64,000 nt of DNA, taken from positions 1-64,000 of the IMG/VR virus record IMGVR_UViG_2903405734_000002. One strand, 5' to 3'. The notes below the pieces were generated by a model. It was not told the origin of the DNA, made no database searches, and worked only from the letters and a program-made list of their open reading frames with translations. The DNA is from a virus (Duplodnaviria; Heunggongvirae; Uroviricota; Caudoviricetes). Made by a program: the position numbers and the translations under genes. Positions 8,204-64,000 of the stretch are shown here, piece after piece. Each line of letters begins with the position of its first letter. The first letter of the stretch is position 1.

Positions 8204-8336
8204 TATGAAACACCTTTTTTATTATTGTTATTTGGTAAGTTCATAGTTTTAAACTATTAGTTTTTAATGATATTTACTAAAATAAAAAAGGTAAAGTTTT
8301 TTTTAATATATAAACGTTTGTTTGTATTTGTTGAAT

Positions 8337-8366
8337 AAAAAAGCCCCGTTAAAGGGGCTTTTTTGG
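8337..8366. terminator. Bidirectional rho-independent terminator
   Basis: aaaagccccg-ttaa-aggggctttttt. Confidence 0.7.
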
Positions 8367-8377
8367 TTGGTCTTTGC

Positions 8378-10345
8378 TCAAACTGGGCGAGATGGCTCTT
8401 CCATGCCACAAGCATAGTTCTCTGCCATGAGCAGGTATGGAGCCCATTTGAGGTATTCCTGCCTGGTTCTCGGGTCAGAGAAGAACCGCTTGTAGTCACC
8501 CTTCTGGTAAGCAGACGCATTCAAAAGCATCGAGAACGGAACTGTGATTGAGTCCTTGATTTTTTTATCGTAGTAGTCACGACCCATGTAGTTTACCGAT
8601 GGCTCTCGATACCATGTGAATACAGCCTTGCCTGTCTTCATCTGTTTGGATGCAATAGCGAGCTTTCCAGGGCCTTCATTGTTCGCGGGAATGTATCGGT
8701 CGAGCTCTCTGAGCTCATCGCCGTAGGCAGACCTTAATCGCCGTTTATTCTCTCGATCTGTCTCTCTCTGGACAAAAGCCTCATGCTGTCCAACGAAAAC
8801 TGACTCGCTGGTGATTTTGTCATTGAGTGCGGCCCTGAATGCTTCAAAGTCAGGCTTTTCCCCTGAGTAGAGGACGTATTCCGCATCATAGATCAGCTTG
8901 ATGTGCTTGATGAAGTCACTGGGCTTAGACAGGGAGATCCGGCCATGAGGGCTAAGTGCCTCCGAACGGTCTAACAGACCCTGCAACACAACAGAGACCT
9001 TGTTGTATTTTTTGATCTTGTCTGAGAAATACTGATTGATCTCATCAAAGTAGACGTTTTGGTTGTCAAAGGCTTGATATCTGCCATGACGGATATCATC
9101 AAACAGGCTACTGTGGTGTCGATCAATATCTCCTGCTTTTTTGCTTTCTTCAATCTGCGTCAGAACCTGCTCGTACTCGCGAACAGTAATGACGTTTTTG
9201 ACCTTGCCACAGAACATATAAACCATCACTGGTTCGTTAATGAAACCATCATCAGATGGGAAGATCATCTCATCAAAATCCAACATCGTTGAAATTCGAT
9301 AGATTTTCTCTCCATTTCTGACGTAGAGGAAGGTTTGCTCATCCTGCTTTTCCAGGCTGAATCTTACAAACGCATGGATTGAGTTGTCATAGCTTTTTGT
9401 TTTTCTTCTTACCTTGAAGGCAACAACGGTCTTCGAAAATGGCAGCAGCCTTTCTGCGTTCCCATTTCGGCAGAGCCAGCGATCAAACTCAGAGATTTTT
9501 GTAAATGACATGCCGCCTGCATCGTAGTCCAGCAGACACTCCTCATCCATATACAGCCTGCGCTGCATCACATGGATCATCTCATCAGCTCCAGCTGGGA
9601 TGCCGTCTCTCACAAGAACAGTGTCCTCATCAATCCCTGCATACAGACCAACATCCTCAATACGATCATCAATCTTCTTCATGTCATTTTTGATTGATTG
9701 CATCATTGCGGATGGGATCATGGTGCTTGCAAGCACCCACTTTGTGATGACCTGGCAGGTACGCTCAAGATCACCCTGCATGCTTGGCAGAGTCTTCTCT
9801 TTAAAGACGATCATCTCACCCTTGAATGCATTCACATCCATCACATCAGACAGGACTGCAATGCCAGTAGATGAGGACTCCTGAATAGGGGAGGGAAGGG
9901 ACTTGCCGGAAACAAAGCTCGAAACATCACCACTTACCTGCAAACCAAACTTCGCAGCAAGAAGAGATATCTGCCCAAGGATAGCCTTTGATTTCTCCTG
10001 TCCAGCATTGATGAAGTCCTGGATGATTTGCTCATGGCAGGGCTCAAAAATTAGTTGCTCAAACGCATCAGAAAACAACACTCGCTTGTGAAGCGATGAC
10101 AATCTCGCGCCGCTAGGCTCATTCAGCTCAATGAAGTTACTCCCGATGTGAGTGATGCACATGAGGAAGTAGTGGTTATCACCAATTTTCTTTGTGATGT
10201 GCTCGCCGCGACCATCGTCATTCCAAACCGCTTTGGCCCAGTGCCACTGACCAATGAAGAAAATGCCTTTATCTCCGTCTTTCTCAAGGAGGTGACCCTC
10301 ATTTTCCGAAATGACTGAATGTGAAACAGCATGTTTGTCGTTCAT
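8378..10345 (-). CDS. hypothetical large protein (655 aa)
   Basis: Long ORF. Start moved to MNDKHAV (ATG 10345), which follows AGGAG at good spacing. The upstream in-frame extension lacks an RBS. Confidence 0.6.
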   Translation of the reverse strand: MNDKHAVSHSVISENEGHLLEKDGDKGIFFIGQWHWAKAVWNDDGRGEHITKKIGDNHYFLMCITHIGSNFIELNEPSGARLSSLHKRVLFSDAFEQLIFEPCHEQIIQDFINAGQEKSKAILGQISLLAAKFGLQVSGDVSSFVSGKSLPSPIQESSSTGIAVLSDVMDVNAFKGEMIVFKEKTLPSMQGDLERTCQVITKWVLASTMIPSAMMQSIKNDMKKIDDRIEDVGLYAGIDEDTVLVRDGIPAGADEMIHVMQRRLYMDEECLLDYDAGGMSFTKISEFDRWLCRNGNAERLLPFSKTVVAFKVRRKTKSYDNSIHAFVRFSLEKQDEQTFLYVRNGEKIYRISTMLDFDEMIFPSDDGFINEPVMVYMFCGKVKNVITVREYEQVLTQIEESKKAGDIDRHHSSLFDDIRHGRYQAFDNQNVYFDEINQYFSDKIKKYNKVSVVLQGLLDRSEALSPHGRISLSKPSDFIKHIKLIYDAEYVLYSGEKPDFEAFRAALNDKITSESVFVGQHEAFVQRETDRENKRRLRSAYGDELRELDRYIPANNEGPGKLAIASKQMKTGKAVFTWYREPSVNYMGRDYYDKKIKDSITVPFSMLLNASAYQKGDYKRFFSDPRTRQEYLKWAPYLLMAENYACGMEEPSRPV

Positions 10346-17090: not shown

Positions 17091-18686
17091 ATGAAAAAGA
17101 ACAGTGGTTTTACTCTTTTAGAGCTACTCTTGGTGATTGGCCTGTCTACAGCCATAGCCGTTGTGGCCTTTCAGGACAAAATGCTTGAGACCGAGCAGTC
17201 ACAGGCAAGACAGCTTGGTATGGAGCTCTTTCAGTACAACTCCGCCGTACAAAACTATCTTGCTCATGAATCAGGAAACAAGAATCCGGCATCTTTGAAC
17301 GGGGTAAAGCACAGTGGTGTAAACTGGCTTAAATCCTCATCATCCTGTAGTGGCGGCCAGGCTGTGAAGGAGTGGCTTGCCTGTAGATTCCTTCAAGCGC
17401 AAGGTGGAAAAACCACTTTTGGTCGCCTGTCTTTCAACACAACCCTCTCGTTCTCAAGCTCTGAGGGTTTGAGTGCAACAACAGTGGTTAGCCCGCTTGA
17501 GTTCAATAAAAATGGGGTGATGGAGAGAAGGGGTGATCTGAGTGGGTTGGCGGCTCTCGTTGCTTCTGGTGCTTATTCGGTTAAGGACAAACCTATGGCG
17601 GCCAACTCTCAGGATAGCTCCATCGTTTACTGCCCAGAAACCGCATCAAAATCGCCGAGCATGGCCGCGATTTGTAATGGCAGGGATGGGTCTATTGTGA
17701 TGTTTAGCCGCAACTTGAGCGAGTCTGATAGATGGCTTCGCGTTGATCATGGCAACGTGATGCAAAACACTCTTGAATTCCGCACTGGCAGTACAACTCC
17801 TGAGTCCCTTTCTGAGATCCAAAAGATTGACTCTGTTGCTCGTCAAATCCGCAACGTTGCCAGGATATACAACCTTGGCGATGGCAATACCAACGGAGAA
17901 AATGACAATCTTTATCTTGGAAAAAGAAAAGGCGAGTTCGCCAAAACATCTGCGACACTTAAAAGTGACGCTGTAATTGTTGATGCTGATCAGGAGATTC
18001 TTGGGAAGTTAATTGTCCAAAGTGATGTTATTGCAAGAGGAAATATAACATCTGAGAAGGACATTCTTGCCAAGGGCAACATAACATCTGAGAAGGATGT
18101 TCTTGCTAAGGGCAACATAACAGCTGAAAAGGATATTCTTGCAATTGGAAACATTACCTCTAAGGGCGGTCTAAAAGTAGATAAAGATGCCTTAATAAGT
18201 GGCAATACGACCACATCAAAAATAATTGATGCTAATGACGGAAACTACTATGTTGACATGAATGGATCATCAAAACTAAATGTTCTTGTTGCAAATCAGA
18301 TAGAATCAACAGGATTTATTCTTCCTGGCGCATTTAAACCAGGAGAAAACTGTTCAAGAAATGGGGCTATTGGCAGAAACTCAGCAACTAATGGGCCTAT
18401 GCTTTGTGTTAACAATAAATGGGAAAGTAATGAATCCAAGATAGGGCCTTGGGTTGCTTATAGTCCAAATGTAACCTATACAGCCCCATCAGATGGTTTT
18501 ATCACTGCTAAGACACGGCACAACAATTGGGTTTCTATATCTGTTGGTGGTTCAGAGCGCTGCCATGTTGCAGCACGAGATAAATACGGCCAAGGACAGG
18601 TAAGCTGTACAAGCATTGTTGCCAAAGGAGAGAAATTCAGGGTTACTGGTGGCATTCAATATATTTATTTCAGGCAGATCGGGTAA
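17091..18686 (+). CDS. large type IV pilin-domain protein (paralogue 1 of 3)
   Basis: Prepilin leader MKKNSG|FTLLELLLVIG with E+5. Contains an internal 33-bp (11-aa) AKGNITSEKDIL repeat x3.5. Cys-containing C-terminal domain. Confidence 0.8.
   Translation: MKKNSGFTLLELLLVIGLSTAIAVVAFQDKMLETEQSQARQLGMELFQYNSAVQNYLAHESGNKNPASLNGVKHSGVNWLKSSSSCSGGQAVKEWLACRFLQAQGGKTTFGRLSFNTTLSFSSSEGLSATTVVSPLEFNKNGVMERRGDLSGLAALVASGAYSVKDKPMAANSQDSSIVYCPETASKSPSMAAICNGRDGSIVMFSRNLSESDRWLRVDHGNVMQNTLEFRTGSTTPESLSEIQKIDSVARQIRNVARIYNLGDGNTNGENDNLYLGKRKGEFAKTSATLKSDAVIVDADQEILGKLIVQSDVIARGNITSEKDILAKGNITSEKDVLAKGNITAEKDILAIGNITSKGGLKVDKDALISGNTTTSKIIDANDGNYYVDMNGSSKLNVLVANQIESTGFILPGAFKPGENCSRNGAIGRNSATNGPMLCVNNKWESNESKIGPWVAYSPNVTYTAPSDGFITAKTRHNNWVSISVGGSERCHVAARDKYGQGQVSCTSIVAKGEKFRVTGGIQYIYFRQIG
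18046..18180 (+). repeat. In-frame 33-bp coding tandem repeat (about 3.5 copies)
   Basis: aagggcaacataacatctgagaaggatgttcttgct-like units encoding (A)KGNITSEKDIL. Confidence 0.7.
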
Positions 18687-18719
18687 TCCCCTTTGCAGCA
18701 TATTTAATTAGGGGACTTA

Positions 18720-20594
18720 ATGAAAAACAAAGGGTTTACTCTTCTAGAATTATTGTTGGTTATTGGCATCACAACATCAATGGCTATTGTTTCGTTTCAA
18801 GATAAGATGCTTGAGACGGAGCAATACCAGGCAAGAAAATTAGGGATGGAGTTGTTTCAATACAACTCCGCTGTTCAAAACTATCTGGCACATCAATCTG
18901 GAAACCCTAACCCTAAATCACTGGAAAAAACGCACATTGGTGTAAAGTGGCTTAAGTCCACCAGCTGCGGCGGAGAGAGTGATAAAGAGTGGTTGTCTTG
19001 TAATTTTCTTGGGTACACAAATGGGAAAACCTCGTTTGGCAGGCTCTCGTTTAGTACAACCATTGTGTATGAGAACAATAACGTTCTTACTGCTAGAACA
19101 GTTATGAGCAAGCTGAATGTCGGCACCGCTGGTAAGAACCAGGAGAGGGCTGATCTCAGTGGTCTTGCAGCTATGGTGGCATCAGGGGCCTATGCCGTCA
19201 GTGAGGATGGAAGAGCTGCCAGCGCTCAAGATAGCACCATCGTTTACTGCCCAGATACATCCATTCCAACAGCCAGCACAGCGGCTTGTCAGGGTGAGAA
19301 AGGGGTAATAGTGATGATTGGCCGAAATCAGAGCTCATCAGACAGATGGCTAAGGGTTGATCATGGTAACGTGATGCAAAACGCTTTGGAATTTCGGACA
19401 GGGGACTCCACGCCATCAACGCAATCAGAGCTTTCTGCAATAGATGGATTCAATAGACAGATCCGTAATGTAGCTCGAATTTACAACCTTGGAGATAGCA
19501 ATAGTAATTCATCTAGTGACAACCTTTATCTCGGAAAGAAATATGGCAATGCAGCAAAAAGCATGGCTACTCTTGCAAACAATGCAGTTATTGTTGATGC
19601 CGACCAAGAAATTCTTGGAAGGTTGGTTGTTTCTTCGTCTATTCAGGCCAAAGGCAATATCTCCACAGAAAAAGATATTAGTGCAAAAGGAAATATCTCA
19701 TCTGACGGCAAGATTACAGCCAATCAAGATATTGAATCAAAGAAAAACATCTATGCGAATGGAAATCTTATTTCAGCAGGTGATGCAAACATTGGAAATA
19801 CTCTTAATGTAACAAGGGATGCCGCGATTAATGGTGCAGCAACGATAAACGGAATTGTTACAGCAAAAAGTAAAATGGCTGTTGGCGATGATGCCACGTT
19901 CAATGGAAACATCTTCGGAAAGAAAAGTATTTTTGTAGATCAAAACGGAACATTCAACGGCATCGTTTCAACTCAAAGATTGGTTGATGCCAATAATAAT
20001 GGATATTATGTAGACCCCAGCGATACATCAAGACTAAATAGCGTGAATGCGAACTATCTAAAATCATATGGAGATATCTCTTCTGATGGAAGTATTTATG
20101 CAAATGGAAATATGAGTGCTAATGGCAATGTATCATCAGGAAACATTGCATCAGGAAAGTATATTCTTCCAAACCAGGTTGTTGGCGTAAATAGTTCCTG
20201 TGCGGGCCTTCCTTCTGGAACAATCGCAAAAAGTCCGCAAGGAGAGATTTTAAGTTGCCAATCTGGAATTTGGGCGGGTTCAAAAAGTGACATGCAGACT
20301 TTTTCTGGCAATAGCTCAATTAGCGGATTGACGCCATACAAAAAATATCTTGTCACAGTGTATGGCATTACTGATGACAAAGGGGAGAGAGGTGCGTGGT
20401 TAGGGCCTGTTAAAGTAACCAACAGCAGTGGGGGAGTAATTGATACTACAAGTAGTCTTGATATAAACTGGATGGATGGAAATACCCCTCAGAGTGCTGT
20501 TTTTATAATTAACGCTCCATATGATGGTGTTATTTATGGATATACAGATAATGACAATGCTGCGCTTAATATGAAAGCAGTTTCCCTTAATTAA
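18720..20594 (+). CDS. large type IV pilin-domain protein (paralogue 2 of 3)
   Basis: Leader MKNKG|FTLLELLLVIG. N-terminal about 300 aa is conserved with paralogue 1 (RADLSGLAA.VASGAY, DRWLRVDHGNVMQN, IRNVARIYNLGD). The C-terminal half diverges. Confidence 0.8.
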   Translation: MKNKGFTLLELLLVIGITTSMAIVSFQDKMLETEQYQARKLGMELFQYNSAVQNYLAHQSGNPNPKSLEKTHIGVKWLKSTSCGGESDKEWLSCNFLGYTNGKTSFGRLSFSTTIVYENNNVLTARTVMSKLNVGTAGKNQERADLSGLAAMVASGAYAVSEDGRAASAQDSTIVYCPDTSIPTASTAACQGEKGVIVMIGRNQSSSDRWLRVDHGNVMQNALEFRTGDSTPSTQSELSAIDGFNRQIRNVARIYNLGDSNSNSSSDNLYLGKKYGNAAKSMATLANNAVIVDADQEILGRLVVSSSIQAKGNISTEKDISAKGNISSDGKITANQDIESKKNIYANGNLISAGDANIGNTLNVTRDAAINGAATINGIVTAKSKMAVGDDATFNGNIFGKKSIFVDQNGTFNGIVSTQRLVDANNNGYYVDPSDTSRLNSVNANYLKSYGDISSDGSIYANGNMSANGNVSSGNIASGKYILPNQVVGVNSSCAGLPSGTIAKSPQGEILSCQSGIWAGSKSDMQTFSGNSSISGLTPYKKYLVTVYGITDDKGERGAWLGPVKVTNSSGGVIDTTSSLDINWMDGNTPQSAVFIINAPYDGVIYGYTDNDNAALNMKAVSLN

Positions 20595-20606
20595 AAGGAT
20601 AATAAA

Positions 20607-22415
20607 GTGAAAAATAAAGGGTTTACGCTGCTTGAGTTGCTGCTGGTGATTGGTATCACTACATCAATGGCGGTAGTAACTTTTCAAGACAAGATGCTTG
20701 AGACAGAGCAGTCTCAGGCTCGCCGACTCGGCATGGAGATCTTCCAGTACAACTCCGCCGTTCAGAACTATCTGGCCCACCAATCGGGCCAGCAAAACCC
20801 TGCATCAGTGGCAGGTACATTCAAAGGGGTGAATTGGCTTAAGTCCACCAGCTGCGGAGGAATGGCTGATAAGGCATGGCTGTCGTGCAATTTCCTGAGT
20901 CACAGTGGGGGGAAAACCACTCTTGGCCGTCTCGGCTTTACCACTGAGATTAAGTATGACCCCTCAGTTGGGTTAACTGGCCGAACAGTGATGGATAAGC
21001 TCTCTCTCGGGAGTGGGAGTAGTACACAGGAACGTGCTGACCTATCTGGCCTGGCCGCACTGGTGGCATCTGGTGCCTATGCTGTCAGTGAAGACGGAAA
21101 AGCAGTGAGAGCTCAGGATAGTACAGTTGCCTACTGCCCAGACACAGCAGGGACATCTCCTATCAATGCAGTATGCCAAGGCGATAAGGGCAGCATCGTG
21201 ATGCTCAGCCGCAATCTCAGCGCTGCTGACCGCTGGCTCAGGGTTGATCATGGCAACGCCATGCAGAATGCACTGGAATTCCGCACAGGCGATCCTACGC
21301 CTGCCAGCCAAACTGATATCCAGGCTATCGATTCCGTCAGTCGCCAGATCCGCAACGTGGCTCGCATCTACAATCTCGGCAACAGTAACAGCAATGGCGA
21401 AAGCGACAACCTCTACCTGGGCAAAAGGTACGGGAATGCAGCCAAGAGCATGGCAACACTCCCTAGCAACGCCGTTGTCATCGATGCCGATCAGGAGGTG
21501 CTAGGGAAGCTGGTCGTAGCTGCATCTATTGATGCAAAAGGGGATATAAGCACAAAGGCCAACTTCAAGGCAGACGGAAGTGCGATCATCAAAAAAGACA
21601 TTAGCGCAGGAAGTGACCTATCTGTTGGAGGAAAGACAACTCTTGCCGGAGATGTTGCGGCTCAGAGTAATGTCTCTATTGGCAAATCACTGTCAGTGGC
21701 CGGAGAGATTGAAGGTAAGCAAAACCTCAAAATTGCCAATGGAGGTAACTTTGGTGGGGATGTTATCGCCAAGAACATTACTGCTGGAGGCAAGATTGCA
21801 GGCGGCACACTCAATATCAGTGGTTCTGGCTACTTCAATGGCGAGCTTTTCGCTCAACGGCTTGTTGACTCAAATGATCCAGCCTATCTGGTTGACCCCA
21901 ATAATGAGTCAAATTTCAATGAGGTGCGGGTTACAACACTAAATGCTCGGGGCAACGTCAATGCTACCAATGTCAACGCAACCAATGAGGTGAGGAGCAG
22001 GACGGTCATTGCCAATGGTGATACCGTTGCTGGTGGCTATGCAGCAGGCCAATATTTGCTATCAAACGGCACAGCTTGGGAAGGTGGGTCATGTCATGGT
22101 GTAGCACATGGGGCAATCTCAAAGGATCCATCTGGCGGACTTCTTACTTGCAAGGGCGGTGTTTGGAAGAGTCCATCGCAAGCGATGCAGATCACCACTG
22201 CTTATGGGCCTGTCTCCGCTTGTAGAGGAACCTCAACAGCAACATGCCCTGCTGGCACCAAAGTTATTTCTGGAGGTCATCACTGGCAGGGTTCTTGTGG
22301 GTGTGGAGAAGAGCACCGCTTTATCCTCAATAGTGCCCCTAATGGAACAAGAGCCTGGAGTGCTCAGATGGAGTGTTCTCATGTTATGGCGGTAGCCATA
22401 TGCGTGACAGAATGA
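20607..22415 (+). CDS. large type IV pilin-domain protein (paralogue 3 of 3), visibly higher GC
   Basis: Same leader and core as paralogues 1 and 2. Distinct Cys-rich C-terminus. Nucleotide composition is clearly more GC-rich than copies 1 and 2. Confidence 0.8.
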   Translation: MKNKGFTLLELLLVIGITTSMAVVTFQDKMLETEQSQARRLGMEIFQYNSAVQNYLAHQSGQQNPASVAGTFKGVNWLKSTSCGGMADKAWLSCNFLSHSGGKTTLGRLGFTTEIKYDPSVGLTGRTVMDKLSLGSGSSTQERADLSGLAALVASGAYAVSEDGKAVRAQDSTVAYCPDTAGTSPINAVCQGDKGSIVMLSRNLSAADRWLRVDHGNAMQNALEFRTGDPTPASQTDIQAIDSVSRQIRNVARIYNLGNSNSNGESDNLYLGKRYGNAAKSMATLPSNAVVIDADQEVLGKLVVAASIDAKGDISTKANFKADGSAIIKKDISAGSDLSVGGKTTLAGDVAAQSNVSIGKSLSVAGEIEGKQNLKIANGGNFGGDVIAKNITAGGKIAGGTLNISGSGYFNGELFAQRLVDSNDPAYLVDPNNESNFNEVRVTTLNARGNVNATNVNATNEVRSRTVIANGDTVAGGYAAGQYLLSNGTAWEGGSCHGVAHGAISKDPSGGLLTCKGGVWKSPSQAMQITTAYGPVSACRGTSTATCPAGTKVISGGHHWQGSCGCGEEHRFILNSAPNGTRAWSAQMECSHVMAVAICVTE

Positions 22416-22526: not shown

Positions 22527-22602
<76 letters not shown>

Positions 22603-22605
22603 GAG

Positions 22606-22681
<76 letters not shown>

Positions 22682-22683
22682 AT

Positions 22684-22759
22684 TCTCTCGTAGTTCAGTC
22701 GGTAGAACGGTGGACTGTTAATCCATATGTCACAGGTTCAAGTCCTGTCGAGAGAGCCA
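22684..22759 (+). tRNA. tRNA-Asn(GTT)
   Basis: Acceptor TCTCTCG/CGAGAGA, anticodon loop ctGTTaa, CCA encoded. Confidence 0.85.
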
Positions 22760-22816
22760 AATTTCTTCTGTCGATGCATTTCGGCAAGAAGAGAGCCGAA
22801 AGGCTCGCCTGTTTGA

Positions 22817-22892
22817 TGCGAGGTAGAGCAGTTGGTAGCTTACGGGCCTCATAAGTCCGTGGTCGCTGGTTCGAGTCCAGCCCTCGCTTCCA
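22817..22892 (+). tRNA. tRNA-Met(CAT), with 1:72 mismatch
   Basis: Anticodon loop ctCATaa, T-arm GCTGG-TTCGAGT-CCAGC, CCA encoded. Positions 1 and 72 are T:T. Confidence 0.8.
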
Positions 22893-22898
22893 AGATTT

Positions 22899-22975
22899 GG
22901 GATTGTAGCTCAGTTGGTTAGAGTGCTGGCCTGTCACGTCAGAGGTCGCGGGTTCGAGCCCCGTCAGTCCCGCCA
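22899..22975 (+). tRNA. tRNA-Asp(GTC)
   Basis: Acceptor GGGATTG/CAGTCCC, anticodon loop ctGTCac, CCA encoded. Confidence 0.85.
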
Positions 22976-22980
22976 TACAT

Positions 22981-23064
22981 GCGAATGTGGTGAAATTGGT
23001 AGACGCAGGACATTTAAAATGTTCCGCCTTTGGCGTGTCGGTTCGATCCCGACCATTCGCACCA
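22981..23064 (+). tRNA. tRNA-Leu(TAA)
   Basis: Acceptor GCGAATG/CATTCGC, anticodon loop ttTAAaa, long variable arm, CCA encoded. Confidence 0.85.
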
Positions 23065-24952: not shown

Positions 24953-25029
24953 GGCCCCGTATCACAATCGGTTAGTGGAGCGTCCTCATAAGGCGTAACG
25001 TCTCGGTTCGAGTCCGAGCGGGGCCACCA
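24953..25029 (+). tRNA. tRNA-Ile2-like (anticodon CAT, lysidine type)
   Basis: Acceptor GGCCCCG/CGGGGCC resembles E. coli ileX/ileY (GGCCCCT). Anticodon loop ctCATaa. CCA encoded. Strong terminator hairpin follows at 25046-25097. Confidence 0.75.
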
Positions 25030-26044: not shown

Positions 26045-26416
26045 ATGAATAATAAAAACAAAAAAAGCACAAGAAAAATTAGAATGAGCAAGGCTCTTGA
26101 GGGTAGGCTTCTCTCCTCTGTTAGACAAGGAAGAAGAGAGACCATATTCAAGATAATCGGAAAGAAGAATAATGACATTGTTCCTTGCTATGTTTGTGGG
26201 GAGCATGTAAAAAAAGAGCAGGCTACACTAGAACATATAATTCCTCTATCACTTGGCGGCACCGATGACATGGACAACCTGTGGATCTCGCATGAGAAGT
26301 GCAACAGACGAAGAGGAAATAACCTGAAATATCCTTGTTTTGGAGCGCCTCCTGAACTAAGGATTTCATCCGACAGAAAAAAACACCATGAAGACCTCTT
26401 GGAAGACCTTCATTAA
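26045..26416 (+). CDS. HNH endonuclease
   Basis: CYVCGEHV...LEHIIPLSLGGTDDMDNLWISHEKCNRRRGN (C-x2-C ... H ... N ... H-x2-C). Confidence 0.75.
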   Translation: MNNKNKKSTRKIRMSKALEGRLLSSVRQGRRETIFKIIGKKNNDIVPCYVCGEHVKKEQATLEHIIPLSLGGTDDMDNLWISHEKCNRRRGNNLKYPCFGAPPELRISSDRKKHHEDLLEDLH

Positions 26417-27146: not shown

Positions 27147-27514
27147 GGGGCTGACCTGGTTTCGACAGGGTATAGGTGCCTGAATTGCGAGTCGTGTGTT
27201 ATGTATCACACGTAAATCCATGCATAAAACAAATAATCGCTAACGACGAAAGCTTCGCTGTCGCCGCCTAATAAGCGGTAGACAGCCTCTCCACTCAGGG
27301 TTTCTCAGGGCCTAGAGAACATGGAGAGTCAAGTCTCCCTGAGATCGCGTGGCGGCTTCTGTCAGTAGCCAAGACGCTAAACGTAACCTGACTCGCCGGA
27401 GGAATGATTTGCCCATCAATCATCTTCCTGGCTAAAAAAATGATGAGGCTATGCTCGTAGATGTTCAACGCACTGGTGTTCTGGACGCGGGTTCGATTCC
27501 CGCCAGCTCCACCA
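27147..27514 (+). ncRNA. ssrA: tmRNA (SsrA), tag peptide ANDESFAVAA
   Basis: 5' GGGGCTGAcctggtttcgac. Resume codon gct then AACGACGAAAGCTTCGCTGTCGCCGCCTAA. 3' tRNA-like end GGACGCGGGTTCGATTCCCGCCAGCTCCACCA. 368 nt. Confidence 0.95.
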
Positions 27515-27769: not shown

Positions 27770-28234
27770 ATGCAAGAAGGTAGCAAAAAGCTTTCTTGCG
27801 GGATTCTTATCGTAGACGCAAACAAAAACATCTTGATGCTGCATGCAACAGGGCAGAGCTTTTGGGATCTACCAAAGGGAACCCAGGATGAAGGCGAATC
27901 CACGATTGAGACTGCCGTAAGAGAAGTAGAGGAAGAAACCGGAATCAAGGTAGATCCATCAAAATGCATCGAGCTTGGCTGGTATGAATACAACAAGTTC
28001 AAGGATCTGTTCTTGTTCCTGTTGCCAGTTGACGAAGTTGATCTTAGTCAGCTCAAGTGCGATAGCTACTTCATTAATGGTAATGGCGAAGAGCTGCCAG
28101 AAGCAGATGCCTTCAAGATGATTCCCATTGAGAAAGCATCAAGTTTCATGTGCCAAAGCATGTCCAGGCTGTACAACAGCTGCCTCGAAAGAGACATCAA
28201 CATCATGCTTGATCGCTTCAAGAAAGCCGCATAA
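27770..28234 (+). CDS. NUDIX hydrolase
   Basis: Nudix box GTQDEGESTIETAVREVEEETGI. Confidence 0.8.
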   Translation: MQEGSKKLSCGILIVDANKNILMLHATGQSFWDLPKGTQDEGESTIETAVREVEEETGIKVDPSKCIELGWYEYNKFKDLFLFLLPVDEVDLSQLKCDSYFINGNGEELPEADAFKMIPIEKASSFMCQSMSRLYNSCLERDINIMLDRFKKAA

Positions 28235-29809: not shown

Positions 29810-30268
29810 ATGAAGGCAAAAGCAGCTATTGTAAAAAACCGAAAGGCTGAGTTCGACTATTTTTTGAAAGAGCGTATTGAAGCTGGCCTGTCTCTAGAAG
29901 GGTGGGAGGTTAAGTCTCTCAGGGAGGGGAAAGTAAACCTCCAGGAAAGCTATGTGATGAATATCGGCGGCAGGATGATGTTGGTAGGCTGCCATATTAC
30001 TCCAATGATCCAGGCCAGCACTCATGCTCATTGTGATCCGGTCAGAAACAAGCCGCTCCTTCTGAACAAGAAAGAGATTGACCACTTGATTGGATCTGTT
30101 GAGCGCAAAGGCTTTACTTGCATTCCGGTTTCGCTGTATTTTAGCGGAGGAAAAGTTAAGCTTGAGATTGCACTTGCGGAAGGCAAAAAGCAGCACGATA
30201 AGCGAGCAACAGAGAAGGCCAAGGATATGAAGCGCGAAGCAGATAAGGCCATCAAGGGGCTTCGCTAG
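29810..30268 (+). CDS. smpB: SsrA-binding protein SmpB
   Basis: KAEFDYFLKERIEAGLSLEGWEVKSLREGKVNLQESYV...GKKQHDKR closely matches SmpB. Confidence 0.9.
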   Translation: MKAKAAIVKNRKAEFDYFLKERIEAGLSLEGWEVKSLREGKVNLQESYVMNIGGRMMLVGCHITPMIQASTHAHCDPVRNKPLLLNKKEIDHLIGSVERKGFTCIPVSLYFSGGKVKLEIALAEGKKQHDKRATEKAKDMKREADKAIKGLR

Positions 30269-54392: not shown

Positions 54393-55817
54393 TTAGATTG
54401 TATTTCGCCTGCCTGGAAGTACCTCTCCCAAGTTTTTGGCACCGACAAACACAGGGGCAATGAAGACTAGCTTCATGAGCTTGTTCTCGGCCCCGTAGTG
54501 CTGGCCTCTCCAGTGTGGCCCACGCCAGTGAGGTGACACCTTCCGCTTATCTGTTGGCGAGTCATTGAGGTATTGTTTGACCGATGCCTGATCACTCTCG
54601 TTTGAGTGGAAGTGAAGCCTGGTAAAGGACGGTAATGCTGCCTCTTTTTGGATTTTGACACCAAGTTTTTTGGGGTTTGTTTTGTTGATCGGCGGCATTG
54701 GCCCCTGATCTACAACAGTTGAAACAAACTCTTTCCTGGCATAGTTGCTGTTAACAAAGAGCAAGATTGACGCAGCATATCGAACCAGCGCGATTGTGTC
54801 TTGTGAGCGCCGATCATCTTCATACTCCATGAGCTCAACGCCAGATTCTGCCTCCATCATTAGGGCAAGCATGTTTTTGTCGATCTCGTAATCATCGAGC
54901 AAGGCGCTTGTGATCGAGTCGATTAGTGATCTCTCAAGGTCTTTGATTAGAACGTTTATGAACATGGTGGCATCATCAAAGTAGCGATCACCCTCATGCG
55001 GCTTGCCATTGAAGTAGAAGCAAATCCTTGTGAATGGGGTTTCTTCTGTGATACCAGCAGACTCAATCATTTTAGGGGAGTAGTGTCTTGTGGCCCCACT
55101 ATGAGCCTCATGATCATCCCTGAATATCGTTATCGTCTCAAGATCGTGCCAGCCAGTTGCTGCATTAAATAGGCGAAGGCCGCTATCTGCCGGAACCTCT
55201 ATCAGGGTCATTGCCCTGGTAGGAATAACCATTTTAGAGGGAACCTTATCAGTGATCTTGGTAATGCTCATGAGATCAGATACGGTCTTGGATACCTTGA
55301 AGTGATCCATGCACAGAGACTTCTGGCCTACTATCTTCAATTCAGCAAGCACGGTTGCTGGACTTCCCCAAAAGTCATTTATCGTCTTAAGCATCGCTGG
55401 ATTGCCATGCATCTCAACAAGGGCATCAGCTATCGCTTTCGCTTCATTTGTAACGATGTCGATTGATCTTCCTTCCAGGAAAATCCCGCTCAGCATGAGG
55501 ATGTCCATTGCCACATGAAACGGCGATTGAAACGAAAATAGCCCCATGCCAAAAACGGTTGGCAACGGGATCAGACCTGCAAATCGCTCTGATGCTGTTA
55601 CTTTGTTTTTAAATGGAGTGGTGTTGTCATAGAGCTTTGCCTTCTTGAAAACCTGCTCATTGAAGTAATCTCTGTTCTTGAGCATCATTTCGTAATGCAG
55701 CGCCATTGTCTGCGTAATTACTTTTTTCTTGGCAAGCTCCCTGATCTTGTCAGAAACAAACTTTTCATTCGAATAGTTACTAAAAACAACACCCAGATTA
55801 TTCATCTTGCTCACCAT
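54393..55817 (-). CDS. hypothetical protein (about 475 aa)
   Basis: Long ORF. The annotated N-terminal extension to 56090 overlaps the CpxP-like gene and a terminator hairpin (55894-55920), so the start was moved to MVSKMNNLG. Confidence 0.55.
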   Translation of the reverse strand: MVSKMNNLGVVFSNYSNEKFVSDKIRELAKKKVITQTMALHYEMMLKNRDYFNEQVFKKAKLYDNTTPFKNKVTASERFAGLIPLPTVFGMGLFSFQSPFHVAMDILMLSGIFLEGRSIDIVTNEAKAIADALVEMHGNPAMLKTINDFWGSPATVLAELKIVGQKSLCMDHFKVSKTVSDLMSITKITDKVPSKMVIPTRAMTLIEVPADSGLRLFNAATGWHDLETITIFRDDHEAHSGATRHYSPKMIESAGITEETPFTRICFYFNGKPHEGDRYFDDATMFINVLIKDLERSLIDSITSALLDDYEIDKNMLALMMEAESGVELMEYEDDRRSQDTIALVRYAASILLFVNSNYARKEFVSTVVDQGPMPPINKTNPKKLGVKIQKEAALPSFTRLHFHSNESDQASVKQYLNDSPTDKRKVSPHWRGPHWRGQHYGAENKLMKLVFIAPVFVGAKNLGEVLPGRRNTI

Positions 55818-55939
55818 TTCGATAGAAGTGAAGGCATTATACACAAAACCTAATAAGACTAACAAGAGAAGTATAAGGAGTGTTTTGCATACAAAAAGCC
55901 CATCTTGAGATGGGCCTTGTTGGATAGTTGTTTTTTTCT

Positions 55940-56524
55940 TTATCTGGTCGTCTTGTTGAGCGTTTTGTATTGAGCAAACTGTTCGGCTGTAAGAATGGAT
56001 TTTACAGCGGTAATGTGTCTCTCTTTTTCTTTTGCAATGAATTTTCTGGCAGTGATAATATCGGTCATTTCTTGTTTCGTGAATTTGCATCCTTTATGGG
56101 ATGTTTCTTTCTTGGTTAGTTCGCCAGCCATCACTTCATCGTAAGGGGAAACTGGTGGCTCGATCAATTCCTTTGATTCTTGGGTAACGGCAATTTCTTT
56201 GGGGCAATCTGCCTTTTTGATGTTGTGTCGATGAAGAGCCCTGATTGCCCTTAATGTGTCCTTGTGCTTGCTCATTTCTCTTTCAAGATTAACCCTTTGT
56301 TCATTTGAAAGATTAAGAGATTCCATCTTTTTAATGAGTTCTTCTCTGGCCTGGCTCTTTCCATGTCTAGCGTGACTGGTATTAATGTCTTTTTCGTCAG
56401 ATGGGCGAATATGCGCAGATTTATCAGAAGAATTATCTGACGCAGGGCCACCAGCATAGGCAGATGAAATGCTGCTAATAGTAATGAGAGATGCAGCCAT
56501 AAATGACAAGATATGTTTTTTCAT
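55940..56524 (-). CDS. periplasmic CpxP/Spy-like (LTxxQ motif) protein
   Basis: Signal peptide MKKHILSFMAASLITISSISSAYA. C-terminal LTAEQFAQYKTL. Terminator downstream at 55894-55920. Confidence 0.5.
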   Translation of the reverse strand: MKKHILSFMAASLITISSISSAYAGGPASDNSSDKSAHIRPSDEKDINTSHARHGKSQAREELIKKMESLNLSNEQRVNLEREMSKHKDTLRAIRALHRHNIKKADCPKEIAVTQESKELIEPPVSPYDEVMAGELTKKETSHKGCKFTKQEMTDIITARKFIAKEKERHITAVKSILTAEQFAQYKTLNKTTR

Positions 56525-56658
56525 AAAGCGTACCTTTTATTGTTATTATAATAAATCGCTATCTAAATACGACTTAATATTACACATTTAATTTATATAT
56601 ATCAAGCAATATATAAAAAAGGCGCGTTTTTCAACGCGCCTTTTAAATTTACCAGAAA

Positions 56659-59146
<2,488 letters not shown>

Positions 59147-59230
59147 TGTGGAGATATGCCTCAACCTAAAAAAATGAACCAATGGCAATAAAAAAGACCC
59201 CTTCAAGAGGGGTCTTTCTTCTGATAGGAA

Positions 59231-60313
59231 TTACTCCCCATCATTCTCTTCTTCGCTGTCGCTGTCGCCTTCGACTGGCTCAACAGGCTCCACTGGTTCT
59301 TGCTTGGCAGAGAAGCCTTCCTTGAGCTTTTTCAGCTCGGCAACCAGCTCAGGAGTCAGGGTGACGGTCTGTGCTTCATCGGTATCCACCAGCAGTTCTG
59401 CCAGTTGAGAAACCACATTCACAGTGCTCTCCTTGACCTTCTTGGTGAAGCGAACCACAGGCTTGTCCATCGCCTTATCCAGCTCTTTGCGAGAGATACG
59501 GATCTCAGGAGCGGTCTTTTTGACCTCAACCTCAGTCTCAACATCAGTCTCAGTCTCGGTGTCAGACAGAGCAGCTTCATTAGGCTGGGCAACCTCGGCA
59601 GTCTCATTCAGAAGACGCTCAAAGTCCTTCTTCTTCTGCTCGATGATGCCATCAATAAGCTCCATTGCCTTGGTTTCACCATACTTGCGAACAACCTCCA
59701 GGGCATTGCTGTACGGAATGACTTCGCTAGTGATGTAGCCCTGCAAGCGGTAAGGCAGGCTTGCGATAGAGCGGATGTTGCGAATGTGCTGAACACTGCA
59801 ATTACGCTTGGCAGCGAGATCTTCATCAGTAAGACCAAGCGCAGTCAGGCGAGTGAACACATCTGCCTGCTCCACATAATCCAGAGGCAGACCATCCTGG
59901 GAAGTCAGGATCAGCATCAGCTGAGCAACATCATTACCCTGGAATGGGATGCACTGCACAAACTTGAACTCCAGACCATCTTCTTCGATTGCCTGACGCA
60001 GAGCGATCATTCGGCAGTGACCATCACCTACATACAGATGACCATCCTTGATGCGCACACGGATGGGCGGGATCTGAGTCGGATCGGTATTCCACTGACG
60101 GCGCAGAGAAGCGATGTGCTTGAGCTTTTTCTTGGTGCCATAATCTTTACGAGCGTTAAAGCCAGGCTCAATCTCAATAAGATGAGGAGAAACCAACCAG
60201 AGGTCATTCTTTTTGACTTCCTCAGGCTTAAACTTCTTGAGGGCAGCCATGGAAGTAACGAATACGGGATTAGCTTCTGCTTGCGGTTGTTGTTCTACGA
60301 TGTTGCTGGTCAT
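59231..60313 (-). CDS. ParB/Srx-fold (ParB-like nuclease) domain protein with acidic C-terminal tail
   Basis: LIEIEPGFNARKD...IPPIRVRIKDGHLYVGDGHCRMIA (ParB N-terminal domain signature). C-terminal EPVEPVEPVEGDSDSEEEN. Confidence 0.65.
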   Translation of the reverse strand: MTSNIVEQQPQAEANPVFVTSMAALKKFKPEEVKKNDLWLVSPHLIEIEPGFNARKDYGTKKKLKHIASLRRQWNTDPTQIPPIRVRIKDGHLYVGDGHCRMIALRQAIEEDGLEFKFVQCIPFQGNDVAQLMLILTSQDGLPLDYVEQADVFTRLTALGLTDEDLAAKRNCSVQHIRNIRSIASLPYRLQGYITSEVIPYSNALEVVRKYGETKAMELIDGIIEQKKKDFERLLNETAEVAQPNEAALSDTETETDVETEVEVKKTAPEIRISRKELDKAMDKPVVRFTKKVKESTVNVVSQLAELLVDTDEAQTVTLTPELVAELKKLKEGFSAKQEPVEPVEPVEGDSDSEEENDGE

Positions 60314-60687
60314 AACTGCCTCTCTATTACTATTATTGAGTTTATGTTAGCGAACCGCCAAAACAACTTCATCCGGCTACCCGCCTGGGCTGTATCGCTC
60401 ACTTGATGGATACACTATACCTGACGAGGTAATTATTTTCAAGTATAATAAATAAGAAATATCAAAAAAAATCAATTTAGGCATGGTGCGGCGAAGGGAG
60501 GGCAGAAAGAGAGGGAGAACTGGCTTCTGATGAACGCAAAGCGTTGATAAAAAATAAATGGCACTTTCTATTGACGATTGAGTTGCCAACACTAATATGT
60601 CAATTAGGAGCTCGTGTTATCCCCCAATGCCACAAGTTCTGCAACTAGCAAGAGGCCAGCACTACCCCGAGTGCTGGCCTTTTTGTT

Positions 60688-61293
60688 TTACATCAAGAGA
60701 CTGGCGCTTGAAATTTTTTTAATTAGCTGTATATCAAAATCGATGTATTCACAGGAGAATGATTCCCGTTCAATACCGTCATTTTTTCTGTAAATAGACA
60801 AATCCAAATTGCCTTTTTTAGATCGTGATATGTGGATGTTCGCAAGATACGTTTTTCCATCCTCATCTTTAAGGATCACATCATTGAATTTGGTCACAGA
60901 ATCTGGTGCATTCCCACCAAGGACATCTTGAGATTCTGAGTTTAAAAAGTCCAATACATAATCTTTGAGTCCATAGATATGGAAAGGAAGAATGATCCCT
61001 ACGTTTGTCATAGCGCCAGCAAGGGCTTCTTCGCTCTCATTGAAGTAAGACCAAGGATAGCAGTTGTCTGGAGACTCAAAGAATGACTTTAGTTCAATTA
61101 GATCTGAATGCATTCCACCATTGAAAAGAATGATGGTTTTGTGGCCTGTTGCCCACTCAACGTAGGTTTCCCTAGCATAATCATCCTCTTTTTCGTCAGC
61201 ATACTTAATAGCAAGCTTATCCTGAACGTGATCCGCTTGAACCCCCGCCTGAACTCCGGTGAGGAACATGTTTTGAAAATGATAACAGCGCAT
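60688..61293 (-). CDS. hypothetical protein (201 aa), third gene of RNA-repair-like cassette
   Basis: AAGGA RBS. 8-bp gap after the HD-Pnk stop. Confidence 0.55.
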   Translation of the reverse strand: MRCYHFQNMFLTGVQAGVQADHVQDKLAIKYADEKEDDYARETYVEWATGHKTIILFNGGMHSDLIELKSFFESPDNCYPWSYFNESEEALAGAMTNVGIILPFHIYGLKDYVLDFLNSESQDVLGGNAPDSVTKFNDVILKDEDGKTYLANIHISRSKKGNLDLSIYRKNDGIERESFSCEYIDFDIQLIKKISSASLLM

Positions 61294-61301
61294 AATTTTC
61301 C

Positions 61302-62510
61302 TTAAAATGAATGAAGCCAGGTTAGTTTGTGAACTTCTCGCAGATCTGGCAGCTGAAAGATTTTTGCTTGCTTGTGGATGATCTCTGCTGGAATGGAATG
61401 CTTCCTATCCCTGTTGTTTTTCAGGCATTGTGCCAGTGGGGCTTGAAGCAAAACCATTTCAATAAAAGCGCCATAGTCATTGGCAATCCCAAGCAGTTTT
61501 TCCCTTAAATCGATTCTGAGGTTTGTTGCATCCCAAACCACGTTCTCTCCGATCCGAAGCGAGACCTTGAGTTGCTCGTAAGCAAAACGGAATACCTCTC
61601 CGTGATTGTCGATATCGAGACGATCACCAATCATGAGTTCACGGATCTCATCAGGGGAGATCACCCTGTACCCAGGGTAGTTTTTCTTGATGAAGGTGCT
61701 TTTGCCTGAACCAGAGATTGCGCACATCACAACGACATGTGACTTCCCTTGGTTCTGATAGGCAATAGACATCACCTCGTCCTCAAGATGGATCCGTCCC
61801 TTGTCCAGGGCGCTCATCCCCTTGTGGTAAGCAGCCATGCGGAACAAGTCATCTTTGTCTGCAAAGTGCTCATCAACCTTTTTGGAAAGCCCTTCATAGG
61901 CAGTCGTTCGCCAAAGGCCGAGCTCCTCTGCAAAAAGACGAAACACCTCAAGCATTTCGAGTTGCTCATCATAATCATCGGAAACAGTACCTTTCCTGTC
62001 TGCAACCTCAAGCAGATAGATCATCTCCATGCTTGGGATTTTTCGAGAAAGAGCTCTATAGTCAGCTTCCCCTTTGTTCATATAGACCAGCTTCTTGGGT
62101 TGGTCATGATAAGCAACAAGCTGAATGATATCCTTCCAATCTTCCTGGGTGATGCCAAGGGGAGGGGAGCAGGTAAACAGCAACGATGCGCCAGTATGCT
62201 CGTGATAAGGAGCAACCACCCGCTCAACGCCATCCTTCTCTCTACGCCTTGTTGTAAGCGGCTTTCCGTAGTCATGAAACAGGGCAGACAAAATCAAAAC
62301 GTCCTGTTCACGAACGGAAAGATGGCTCGCACAGGTCTCGATCAGGAAGTAAACCTGCTGCAATACCAAATTGGTATGCACCGCAACATTACCCTCTCCA
62401 TGCCAACCAGGATCTTGCTCGGTGGACGAAAACTCGCCAAGCAAGGGGAAATCCTTGCAAAGAGCAGCAAGAAACTGCTCGAAGCTAAATCCCATAAAAC
62501 GTGACTTCAT
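61302..62510 (-). CDS. HD phosphohydrolase plus P-loop polynucleotide kinase fusion (HD-Pnk-like)
   Basis: HD motifs H...LFHDYGK...H...D. Walker A VVMCAISGSGKST. RBS AGGTG. Start is 2 bp after the ligase stop. Confidence 0.7.
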   Translation of the reverse strand: MKSRFMGFSFEQFLAALCKDFPLLGEFSSTEQDPGWHGEGNVAVHTNLVLQQVYFLIETCASHLSVREQDVLILSALFHDYGKPLTTRRREKDGVERVVAPYHEHTGASLLFTCSPPLGITQEDWKDIIQLVAYHDQPKKLVYMNKGEADYRALSRKIPSMEMIYLLEVADRKGTVSDDYDEQLEMLEVFRLFAEELGLWRTTAYEGLSKKVDEHFADKDDLFRMAAYHKGMSALDKGRIHLEDEVMSIAYQNQGKSHVVVMCAISGSGKSTFIKKNYPGYRVISPDEIRELMIGDRLDIDNHGEVFRFAYEQLKVSLRIGENVVWDATNLRIDLREKLLGIANDYGAFIEMVLLQAPLAQCLKNNRDRKHSIPAEIIHKQAKIFQLPDLREVHKLTWLHSF

Positions 62511-62512
62511 AG

Positions 62513-63163
62513 TTACACCTTGATACTTTCAGGATCCCTGAGTTTGTTCGGGATCACGGCTGACTTCATCCAGTGCTCATCTGTTTGCACATGACCTTTG
62601 CGAACAAATTTTGCAACCTTCTTGCTGAAATCGCCGATATGGAAAGATGCAGTAGGACGAATAACAAAACCCTCTGACTTCGTAAGATCCATCGTTTTGT
62701 GGAGGTTTCGAATCAGCTTGTCATCCCAAGGCCCACGATACAGAACAGGTACGGTTTTTACACCGATCTCATTGGCGAGCTCAACAGTCTCATCCCATGA
62801 GAGACAGAATCCTTGCTCATTCCAAATAGAAAACAGCAGGAAAAAAGACTCCAGGTTGTCATAGGCAATGCTATGACGCGCAAACATACCCTCACCACAA
62901 AGGCGCTTGTCCGCAGGGATTCTGTGCGCGATAGACGCATGAAATCTACGCATCCAGGTGCGAGACTCATGGTGGCTATATGTCAGCGAACGAGCATGCA
63001 TACAGTGGCTATAAAGGTTGGTATTTTCACCATCCATCTTCTCAAGAATGATGAGCTCTGGCTCAGAGAGCAGGCCATCAAGACTTCCAATGATTTTGTC
63101 ATCATTCGTAACTGACATTGACCAAGGAAGGTGAGGAGTGCTCGGGTATTTTGTCTCTTGCAT
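62513..63163 (-). CDS. ATP-dependent RNA ligase (Rnl family nucleotidyltransferase)
   Basis: KYPSTPHL N-terminus, motif I EKMDGEN (KxDG), motif IV EGFVIR, motif V KFVRK. Start at MQETKYP with GGAGG RBS. Confidence 0.75.
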   Translation of the reverse strand: MQETKYPSTPHLPWSMSVTNDDKIIGSLDGLLSEPELIILEKMDGENTNLYSHCMHARSLTYSHHESRTWMRRFHASIAHRIPADKRLCGEGMFARHSIAYDNLESFFLLFSIWNEQGFCLSWDETVELANEIGVKTVPVLYRGPWDDKLIRNLHKTMDLTKSEGFVIRPTASFHIGDFSKKVAKFVRKGHVQTDEHWMKSAVIPNKLRDPESIKV

Positions 63164-63382
63164 TTTCTTTGCCTCCAAAATTAATGAATGAATTATATTT
63201 AAACATAAATAAATGTCAATGCGATGGCGATAATATTTTTTAAATAAATAACTCACTGGGATTGACAGGTCAAACTGTTGTGTTATGATAGATGTCGTAA
63301 ATTAAAGAGGTTTCTTATGTATATTCCAGGAATACGGCTCGTTGGGTTTCGATTGTGAAACTTAACGTAGGAGCCACAAAAA

Positions 63383-63937
63383 ATGAGTCTGCTGGATAAA
63401 AAATACATCCTGACCAGTATTTCAGGTAATACCGATGTTATTCACAACATGCGTGAATTCATCAAAGATTTCGGATTGCGCAGGTTTGCTGTTGATTTTG
63501 GTTTTGCTTTCGATGAGCACAAACCATCACTGTCATACTATGGCACACAAAGAGAATATGAAAAATCAGATGAATACCTCTACAAAAAAGAGTATTCAAG
63601 CAAGTACATTCTTGATTTTTTCTACTCTGGTGAAGCAGTAGATCCGATTGATATCGCAATTGAGTTTCTGAACGAAAATCCCGATTACTTTGCTTCAAAA
63701 TGCAAGCTTTACTCATTCGGAACGGCATTCTACAAACGGAGTGCTCATAAGAGGAGACGCCATTACAGAAGGGTAGCAATTGGCCTTCACACAAAGCTGG
63801 TGGAGAGGGAAAGAGCCCTGGAGTTTGGCTTCAAGATGGGTAGGCCGTGTGGCATCGGGGAAATCTATGAAGATGACTACTTTGCGGACAAGAAAGACCG
63901 AAACTGGAAGAAATTCAGAAAGCAGCAATACAAATAA
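63383..63937 (+). CDS. hypothetical basic protein (184 aa)
   Basis: ORF. Terminator 63940-63970. Confidence 0.5.
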   Translation: MSLLDKKYILTSISGNTDVIHNMREFIKDFGLRRFAVDFGFAFDEHKPSLSYYGTQREYEKSDEYLYKKEYSSKYILDFFYSGEAVDPIDIAIEFLNENPDYFASKCKLYSFGTAFYKRSAHKRRRHYRRVAIGLHTKLVERERALEFGFKMGRPCGIGEIYEDDYFADKKDRNWKKFRKQQYK

Positions 63938-64000
63938 AATGGGGCCGCATTAAGCGGCCCTTTTTAATTTACCATTGATTTTAAATAGTGAAAAGTGATA

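Follow-up and report, generated by a model that had tools for sequence, protein, structure and literature searches.

A ligase/HD-Pnk end-repair pair followed by a divergent PTH2-like gene on an Aeromonas mobile element

Within a 64,000-nucleotide stretch of viral DNA (positions 1 to 64,000 of IMG/VR record IMGVR_UViG_2903405734_000002, the whole of which is called the window below), three adjacent genes encode a minimal ligase-like protein, an HD-Pnk end-healing enzyme and a protein related to PTH2 at the level of its predicted fold. We lean towards the reading that the first two proteins repair RNA ends and the third is a tRNA hydrolase, and that the operon keeps translation running under RNA-targeting attack. 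The window comes from a large mobile element of low GC content, a huge phage or a plasmid-like element, that occurs in Aeromonas assemblies. In its operon, known parts are arranged in a new way, which does not amount to a new system; the ligase/HD-Pnk pair has already been described in the literature, and the cassette itself is not new.

Structure and conservation of the operon

The operon is made up of the following features.

63192..63219, minus strand: sigma-70-type promoter (TTGACA-16-TATAAT, 12/12), with a GGAGG ribosome-binding site after it
62513..63163, minus strand: gene 1, ligase, 216 amino acids; ATG at 63163, protein starting MQETKYPSTPHL
61302..62510, minus strand: gene 2, HD-Pnk, 402 amino acids; N-terminal HD phosphoesterase and C-terminal P-loop 5'-kinase
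60688..61293, minus strand: gene 3, PTH2-like, 201 amino acids; phrog_3668 family
60650..60683, strand undefined: GC-rich hairpin, 14 bp, 4 nt past the gene 3 stop

In the direction of transcription, the promoter spans 63219..63192 and is followed by GGAGG and then by the ATG at 63163. Because of this placement, the 216-residue start of the ligase is preferred over a longer open reading frame (ORF) that begins with GTG. Two nucleotides separate genes 1 and 2 (TAA-ct-ATG) and eight separate genes 2 and 3 (TAA-ggaaaatt-ATG), with a Shine-Dalgarno-like AGGTG or AAGGA ahead of the downstream ATG at each junction and no promoter or terminator call between genes 2 and 3. The hairpin probably marks the end of the operon; its T-run is confined to the plus strand, the minus-strand hairpin lacks a clean U-tail, and a 374-nt spacer separates the operon from the next gene downstream. 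An earlier note, made from the letters of the window, had described three co-directional ORFs at 60688-63163 with spacings of 2 and 8 bp, and all three were found there on the minus strand with both spacings as claimed. The motifs that it quoted, KYPSTPHL, EKMDGEN, EGFVIR and KFVRK, were likewise recovered in the ligase translation, and gene 2 contains FHDYGKP and GSGKST.

In comparisons with related elements, the ratio of non-synonymous to synonymous substitution (dN/dS) is lowest for the ligase (0.02-0.03), followed by HD-Pnk (0.03-0.06) and gene 3 (0.22-0.31), which indicates that all three are expressed coding genes under purifying selection, strong in the case of the ligase and HD-Pnk. 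Three deposited Aeromonas veronii proteins from a 215-kb contig (PTH80039-41) are identical to the three operon proteins, and near-identical copies are present in Aeromonas sp. MrichA-1 (405-kb contig), A. media and many metagenome assemblies.

The ligase and HD-Pnk are intact and form a known module

Gene 1 matches the Pfam RNA_ligase family (PF09414, 1.2e-29) and consists of the nucleotidyltransferase domain alone, without an OB or C-terminal substrate-binding domain in its 216 amino acids. Ligase motifs I (KxDG), III, IIIa, IV and V were tested and all are present. The motif I lysine is K42 (EKMDGEN), and across 33-35 aligned homologues K42, D44, G45, C89-G90-E91, F108..W114, E164-G165-x-V167-x-R169 and K185-x-V187-R188 are invariant. 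As no solved structure in the PDB is related to gene 1 by sequence, its fold class was taken from the predicted structure, which is closest to RNA ligases (T4 Rnl2 14.7, NgrRnl 13.7, Rnl3 13.6 and REL1 13.0), whereas DNA ligases score 11.7 or less. By this predicted fold, gene 1 is an adenylyltransferase-only, ATP-dependent ligase-like protein of the Rnl2-like type. The Rnl-type nucleotidyltransferase named in the earlier note is borne out by the invariant motifs and by the nearness of the fold to T4 Rnl2, and the catalytic lysine is retained in the alignment. The family is large (5795 matches, about 50% identity across phyla) and bears the source name 'RNA ligase family protein'.

The reading of gene 2 as a fusion of an HD domain and a Walker-A kinase with HD-Pnk architecture also holds. 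Pfam matches were obtained for AAA_33 (1.8e-21) and, over residues 52-139, for HD (4.1e-07), and the kinase region matches TIGR04075 (bacterial Pnkp) at 5e-17. The kinase half also matches the Clostridium thermocellum Pnkp kinase domain (4jst, 4.4e-14), with ISPDEIR aligned to ISSDFCR. In 26 homologues, the HD residues H37, H79-D80, H135 and D171 are invariant, as are the kinase residues G269-K270, D287, R290, D327, R336 and R369, and both sets are intact in the window protein. The nearest named relatives, at about 40% identity, come from Pseudoalteromonas, Vibrio, Alteromonas and Shewanella. As cited in PMC6097658 and PMC6300522, 5'-OH kinase and 2',3'-phosphoesterase activities are known for the HD-Pnk of Runella and Deinococcus only.

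To place the pair, we counted neighbours in two sets of loci: the best 80 bacterial species loci kept out of 565 confirmed species genomes (6-kb flanks), and 45 viral contig loci with an ORF spanning most of the HD-Pnk profile (8-kb flanks). In 74 of the 80 bacterial loci, a ligase of the same family immediately precedes HD-Pnk, and 21 of the 45 viral loci have such a ligase within 8 kb of it; the pair occurs in no fewer than 565 species genomes. These counts answer the concern, raised in the earlier note, that the HD-kinase might not be co-conserved with the ligase. Several of the viral contigs that carry HD-Pnk measure 270-597 kb. One or both of RtcB and PrfH lie close by in about 19 of the 80 bacterial loci. 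This is exemplified by Vibrio coralliilyticus (L010/L011; L010 5394-15867), where the order is RtcB-PrfH-ligase-HD-Pnk, a HEAT-like protein, RlaP, a second RtcB, a Band_7 protein and RtcR. In the RtcB-PrfH module, a rescue factor that hydrolyses peptidyl-tRNA is coupled with an RNA ligase, as may be the case in the window operon, and in Vibrio and Pseudoalteromonas the module directly adjoins the ligase/HD-Pnk pair. However, the protein families differ (an RtcB ligase and an RF-1-like PrfH), and neither RtcB nor PrfH was found in the window with probes from the Vibrio locus. Separately, four bacterial loci (L088, L113, L115 and L141) carry a second, far weaker ligase-like ORF directly 3' of HD-Pnk (~7030-8035; E 1e-8 to 1e-11 against the ligase profile), giving the order lig-HD-Pnk-lig2.

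The closest described counterparts are in Runella, where a putative ATP-dependent ligase lies immediately 5' of HD-Pnk and overlaps it (PMC6097658), and in Deinococcus, where DR_B0100 shares an operon with the kinase DR_B0098 (PMC1997131). The same two families stand in the same order in all of these, with genes that overlap or nearly abut, and the catalytic lysine is near residue 40 (K40 in DR_B0100, K42 in the window ligase). Unlike those pairs, the window pair is carried by a low-GC Aeromonas mobile element, has no Tpt1, methyltransferase-HIT or PARG neighbour, and is followed by a PTH2-like gene.

Phage T4 Pnkp (PseT) and Rnl1 heal 2',3'-cyclic phosphate/5'-OH ends and seal them with an ATP-dependent ligase, which counters tRNA cleavage by PrrC. 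The window pair would follow the same heal-then-seal logic on a mobile element. It differs in that its phosphoesterase is an HD domain and not HAD/DxD, in the reversed domain order, in a ligase that is a minimal Rnl2-like domain rather than Rnl1 and for which sealing is proposed, and in that no cognate nuclease was identified beside it among the ten large ORFs scanned.

Gene 3 is a divergent PTH2-like protein

The third gene had been left as an unknown in the earlier note. It is a member of a large family found mostly in phages (phrog_3668, 'hydrolase', 4.5e-28), with 140 phage relatives by tblastn and 2033 representatives at 50% identity in a profile search. The core of the protein (residues ~1-120) is followed by a beta insert that varies between lineages (~125-183) and by a C-terminal helix that is conserved (185-196). 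Its link to PTH2 is drawn from a fold comparison, from pooled weak Pfam hits and from a profile-profile alignment. Foldseek against viral models returned members of the gene 3 family first and then annotated peptidyl-tRNA hydrolases (Vibrio phage VH7D, Klosneuvirus and phage phiN3). When 145 diverse relatives were scanned singly against Pfam, 38 gave a weak match to PTH2 (PF01981, best 1.3e-4), and every other Pfam family was matched by at most two of them. Profile-profile comparison (hhalign) with five solved Pth2 sequences, one of them identical to 1q7s and with Sulfolobus numbering checked against 1xty, gave an E-value of 3.3e-4 at a low probability of 38%. The alignment places the family-invariant Q19, H22 and E86 on Pth2 Q22, H25 and the catalytic D86, so that the glutamine and histidine of helix 1 are kept and an invariant acidic residue stands at the Asp86 position.

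Besides that low probability, several points tell against the assignment. Searches of Pfam and NCBIfam with gene 3, and of the PDB with both its single sequence and a profile, returned nothing meaningful. We take Lys18, Asp86 and Thr90 to be the catalytic residues of Sulfolobus Pth2. At the Asp86 position, the gene 3 family has Glu; at that of Lys18, 90 of the 145 relatives have Gln, 52 have His and none has Lys; and Thr90 falls in a gap without a counterpart. Gene 3 further differs from PTH2 in its extra conserved C-terminal helix and, in its own clade, the beta insert of about 60 residues. Membership in the PTH2 superfamily is well supported as a fold-level assignment that lies below the Pfam threshold, and this fold-level limit also tempers the functional reading given below.

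Like the PTH2 proteins of jumbo phages (RaK2 ORF188; Iyer et al. 2021), the family travels with tRNA genes, a CCA-adding enzyme and RNA-repair genes. The concept of phage PTH2 alongside RNA repair has been published for jumbo phages (PMC7824862) and for RaK2 (PMC3622015). The one label of the family is 'hydrolase'; neither Pfam nor NCBIfam has a model for it, and phage annotation would gain from a name for it.

A phage gene with links to tRNA was added to the pair in one lineage

The genomic neighbourhoods of gene 3 homologues were surveyed in 53 IMG/VR loci with 8-kb flanks. A CCA-adding enzyme is present within 8 kb in 10 of these, tRNA genes in 21 and either of the two in 30; in Rheinheimera phage Barba8S and Vibrio phage 11895-B1, the homologue abuts the CCA-adding tRNA nucleotidyltransferase. 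Twelve loci have the homologue inside an array of at least five tRNAs (up to 36). The density of tRNA genes is 2.85 per 10 kb at gene 3 loci, against 1.14 at viral HD-Pnk/Pnk loci, which serve as a rough comparator. A same-family ligase is near the gene 3 homologue in 1 of the 53 viral loci and a full HD-Pnk in none. The locus L054 is the sole viral locus outside the Aeromonas element that brings the ligase and PTH2-like families close: its ligase (3-563, E 7e-80) lies 7.4 kb upstream of the PTH2-like gene (7962-8441), with no detectable HD-Pnk between them.

Gene 3 follows the ligase/HD-Pnk pair only in close relatives of the Aeromonas element. It is kept behind the pair in all six ligase-related places (L065-L070) as well as in L004 and L005, but neither the related element L009 nor L008 has it behind the pair. 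Gene 3 is thus a phage gene linked to tRNA, and its association with the pair arose solely in the lineage of the window. The earlier note had offered it as a candidate new component and suggested checking its co-occurrence with HD-Pnk. No PTH2-like gene stands beside HD-Pnk in any of the 80 bacterial (within 6 kb) or 45 viral loci (within 8 kb), and these counts rule out gene 3 as a conserved HD-Pnk partner.

Within this lineage, gene 3 is a sharply bounded hot-spot of recombination and allelic replacement. Between the window and L065, the ligase, HD-Pnk, the ParB-like protein and the upstream ORF are 99.8-100% identical, whereas the gene 3 proteins share 59.9% identity. At the DNA level, identity drops to 53-83% exactly across 61305..60709, with 97-100% on either side. 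Synonymous divergence (dS) is 0.93 for gene 3 and 0.004-0.03 for the ligase, HD-Pnk and the ParB-like gene; this high value points to diverged alleles having been imported by recombination, rather than to a gene that simply evolves fast. The compared loci (L065, L005, L004 and L066) fall into at least three allele classes, at ~100%, 83% and 60% identity. The variable beta insert (residues 121-184), with 24 of 61 positions identical, has diverged further than the PTH2-like core, with 83 of 120.

These observations bear on whether gene 3 has anything to do with end repair. It could be an independent passenger, a gene for tRNA recycling or ribosome rescue that recombination placed behind the pair without a mechanistic link to it, and we regard this as possible. 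Its absence from all 80 bacterial and 45 viral HD-Pnk loci and from behind the pair in L009 and L008 is as expected of a passenger, as are its behaviour as a swappable cassette among near-identical neighbours and the pairing of its homologues elsewhere with CCA-adding enzymes or tRNA arrays. Yet gene 3 starts only 8 nt from HD-Pnk with no promoter or terminator called in between, and it has been retained in L065-L070, L004 and L005. The other neighbours of its family are also enzymes of tRNA ends, which would fit a common substrate.

Proposed function of the operon

In the reading that we favour, RNA end repair alongside a putative tRNA hydrolase, the HD domain of HD-Pnk would remove 2',3'-cyclic, 3'- or 2'-phosphates and the P-loop kinase would phosphorylate 5'-OH ends. 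Activating the healed ends and joining them would fall to the minimal Rnl2-like adenylyltransferase. Like the isolated N-domain of Rnl2, this protein lacks a substrate-binding domain, and for that reason it probably depends on a partner, for which HD-Pnk is a plausible candidate. The gene 3 protein would most likely act on the acylated 3' end of tRNA and remove a peptidyl, N-acyl-aminoacyl or aminoacyl group, which would free damaged or stalled tRNAs for reuse or repair. Together with the tRNAs, transfer-messenger RNA (tmRNA) and SmpB of the element, the operon may sustain translation when nucleases of the host or of a competitor attack tRNA or rRNA. That a mobile-element pair is co-transcribed with a putative tRNA-3'-end enzyme near tRNAs, tmRNA and SmpB hints at a tRNA- or ribosome-associated RNA substrate, and the three-gene operon is a compact construct for testing the natural substrate of this widespread pair. 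Current concepts are unchanged, as phage RNA repair and phage PTH2 were both known before.

A closer form of cooperation, in which the PTH2-like protein is a true third step of tRNA rescue and clears tRNAs that are broken or stalled of their peptidyl or acyl group before the pair heals and reseals them, seems to us rather unlikely. If it were true, gene 3 could supply the missing context for a ligase type that has so far been inactive, and replacement limited to gene 3 would be the trace of an arms race between its protein and a host factor able to target or sense that protein.

Several findings count against the favoured reading. Two relatives of the ligase self-adenylylate and join neither DNA nor RNA in vitro: the Runella enzyme makes ligase-AMP and sealed no substrate tried (PMC6097658), and DR_B0100, an adenylation domain only, needs K40 for AMP binding and joined neither nucleic acid (PMC1997131). 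The RNA healing-and-sealing cassette of the earlier note is thus partly supported: it stands as far as the intact ligase and HD-Pnk are concerned, and its sealing step is putative, since these relatives only self-adenylylate. The Deinococcus operon is radiation-induced and tied to DNA repair (PMC6300522). Because gene 3 is absent next to HD-Pnk outside the lineage of the window, co-transcription is what argues for its cooperation with the pair. An anticodon nuclease, which the earlier note suggested looking for nearby, was not found: the PADLOC scan of ten large window ORFs detected no PrrC or RloC and matched a SoFic-like protein and a helicase alone. PHROG scans of about 49 window ORFs (10 + 39) found no phage structural genes.

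The radiation link raises an alternative that we think improbable, namely that the pair heals 3'-phosphate/5'-OH DNA breaks on the genome of the element, as proposed for DR_B0100-DR_B0098. In Deinococcus, HD-Pnk is required for resistance to ionising radiation (PMC6300522), and reviews, that one among them, connect the operon with radiation resistance and with DNA and/or RNA repair. However, DR_B0100 by itself ligated no DNA (PMC1997131), and the predicted fold of the window ligase ranks among RNA ligases. A title cited in PMC6097658 calls HD-Pnk a DNA/RNA end-healing enzyme; the closest HD-Pnk relatives, those at ~40% identity in marine gammaproteobacteria, often lie in RtcB/PrfH/RtcR RNA-repair islands. 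A NAD-dependent DNA ligase, LigA (56659..58671), is encoded two genes downstream of the operon, but the partner co-transcribed with the pair is the tRNA-linked gene 3. We infer that the substrate is RNA rather than DNA.

There is a slim chance that gene 1 does not join strands at all but moves AMP to another acceptor (a 5'-adenylylated RNA end or a protein), a mark that HD-Pnk would prepare or reverse: this would suit a 216-residue protein without an OB or C-terminal substrate-binding domain and the two family members that form enzyme-AMP yet seal nothing tried (PMC6097658, PMC1997131), but every ligase motif, IV and V included, is invariant, the pairing with an end-healing enzyme in 74 of 80 loci is what a ligase would need, and DR_B0100 is reported to ligate DNA only with DR_B0098 and PprA, which suggests a missing cofactor rather than another chemistry (PMC6300522).

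The mobile element around the operon

The GC content of the window is ~36-50%, well below the roughly 60% of Aeromonas chromosomes. The window encodes 10-11 tRNA genes, tmRNA, SmpB, TnpB, a SoFic-like Fic protein, Dam-type methyltransferases, a ParB-like protein and a NAD-dependent DNA ligase. Its further features are as follows.

1-251, 22527-23064 and 24953-25029: tRNA genes (Lys-CTT, Glu-TTC, Thr-TGT x2, Asn, Met x2, Asp, Leu-TAA), with a partial one at the window start
2461-3666, plus strand: DUF4172-Fic protein
314-1525, minus strand: adjoining TnpB/IS605 OrfB-type gene
17091-22415, plus strand: three consecutive large proteins (531, 624 and 602 amino acids) with a type IV pilin-like N-terminal methylation motif
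26045-26416: HNH gene, near tmRNA and SmpB
27147-27514, plus strand: tmRNA (Rfam RF00023, 197 bits; tag ANDESFAVAA)
27770-28234: NUDIX gene, near tmRNA and SmpB
29810-30268, plus strand: SmpB (Pfam PF01668, 2.5e-53)
54393-60313, minus strand: genes downstream of the operon (ParB-like, 155-residue ORF, LigA, 194-residue ORF, 565-residue ORF)

The presence of tmRNA and SmpB means that the element encodes its own trans-translation pair, and the tRNA set fits a mobile element equipped with translation components of its own. When 56000-64000 was compared by megablast with phage and plasmid records, no near DNA match emerged, and tblastn of gene 3 against plasmids gave nothing. The PHROG scan of 39 ORFs matched ten families, including a D5-like regulator, two acetyltransferases, an HNH endonuclease and several of unknown function; ORFs of 709, 666, 509 and 466 amino acids had no Pfam or PHROG match, and the 155-residue ORF downstream of the ParB-like gene had no matches. 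The ParB-like protein is of a phage type (phrog_1033, 8e-43), LigA is full-length (NF005932, 3.9e-249), and the DUF4172-Fic protein matches the PADLOC SoFic defence model at 1e-40. Relatives of the 565-residue ORF bear the Pfam AcrVA2-like mark, and related elements additionally carry genes for thymidine kinase, YkuD and AcrVA2-like proteins. Two of the three pilin-like proteins at 17091-22415 also have bactofilin-like repeats.

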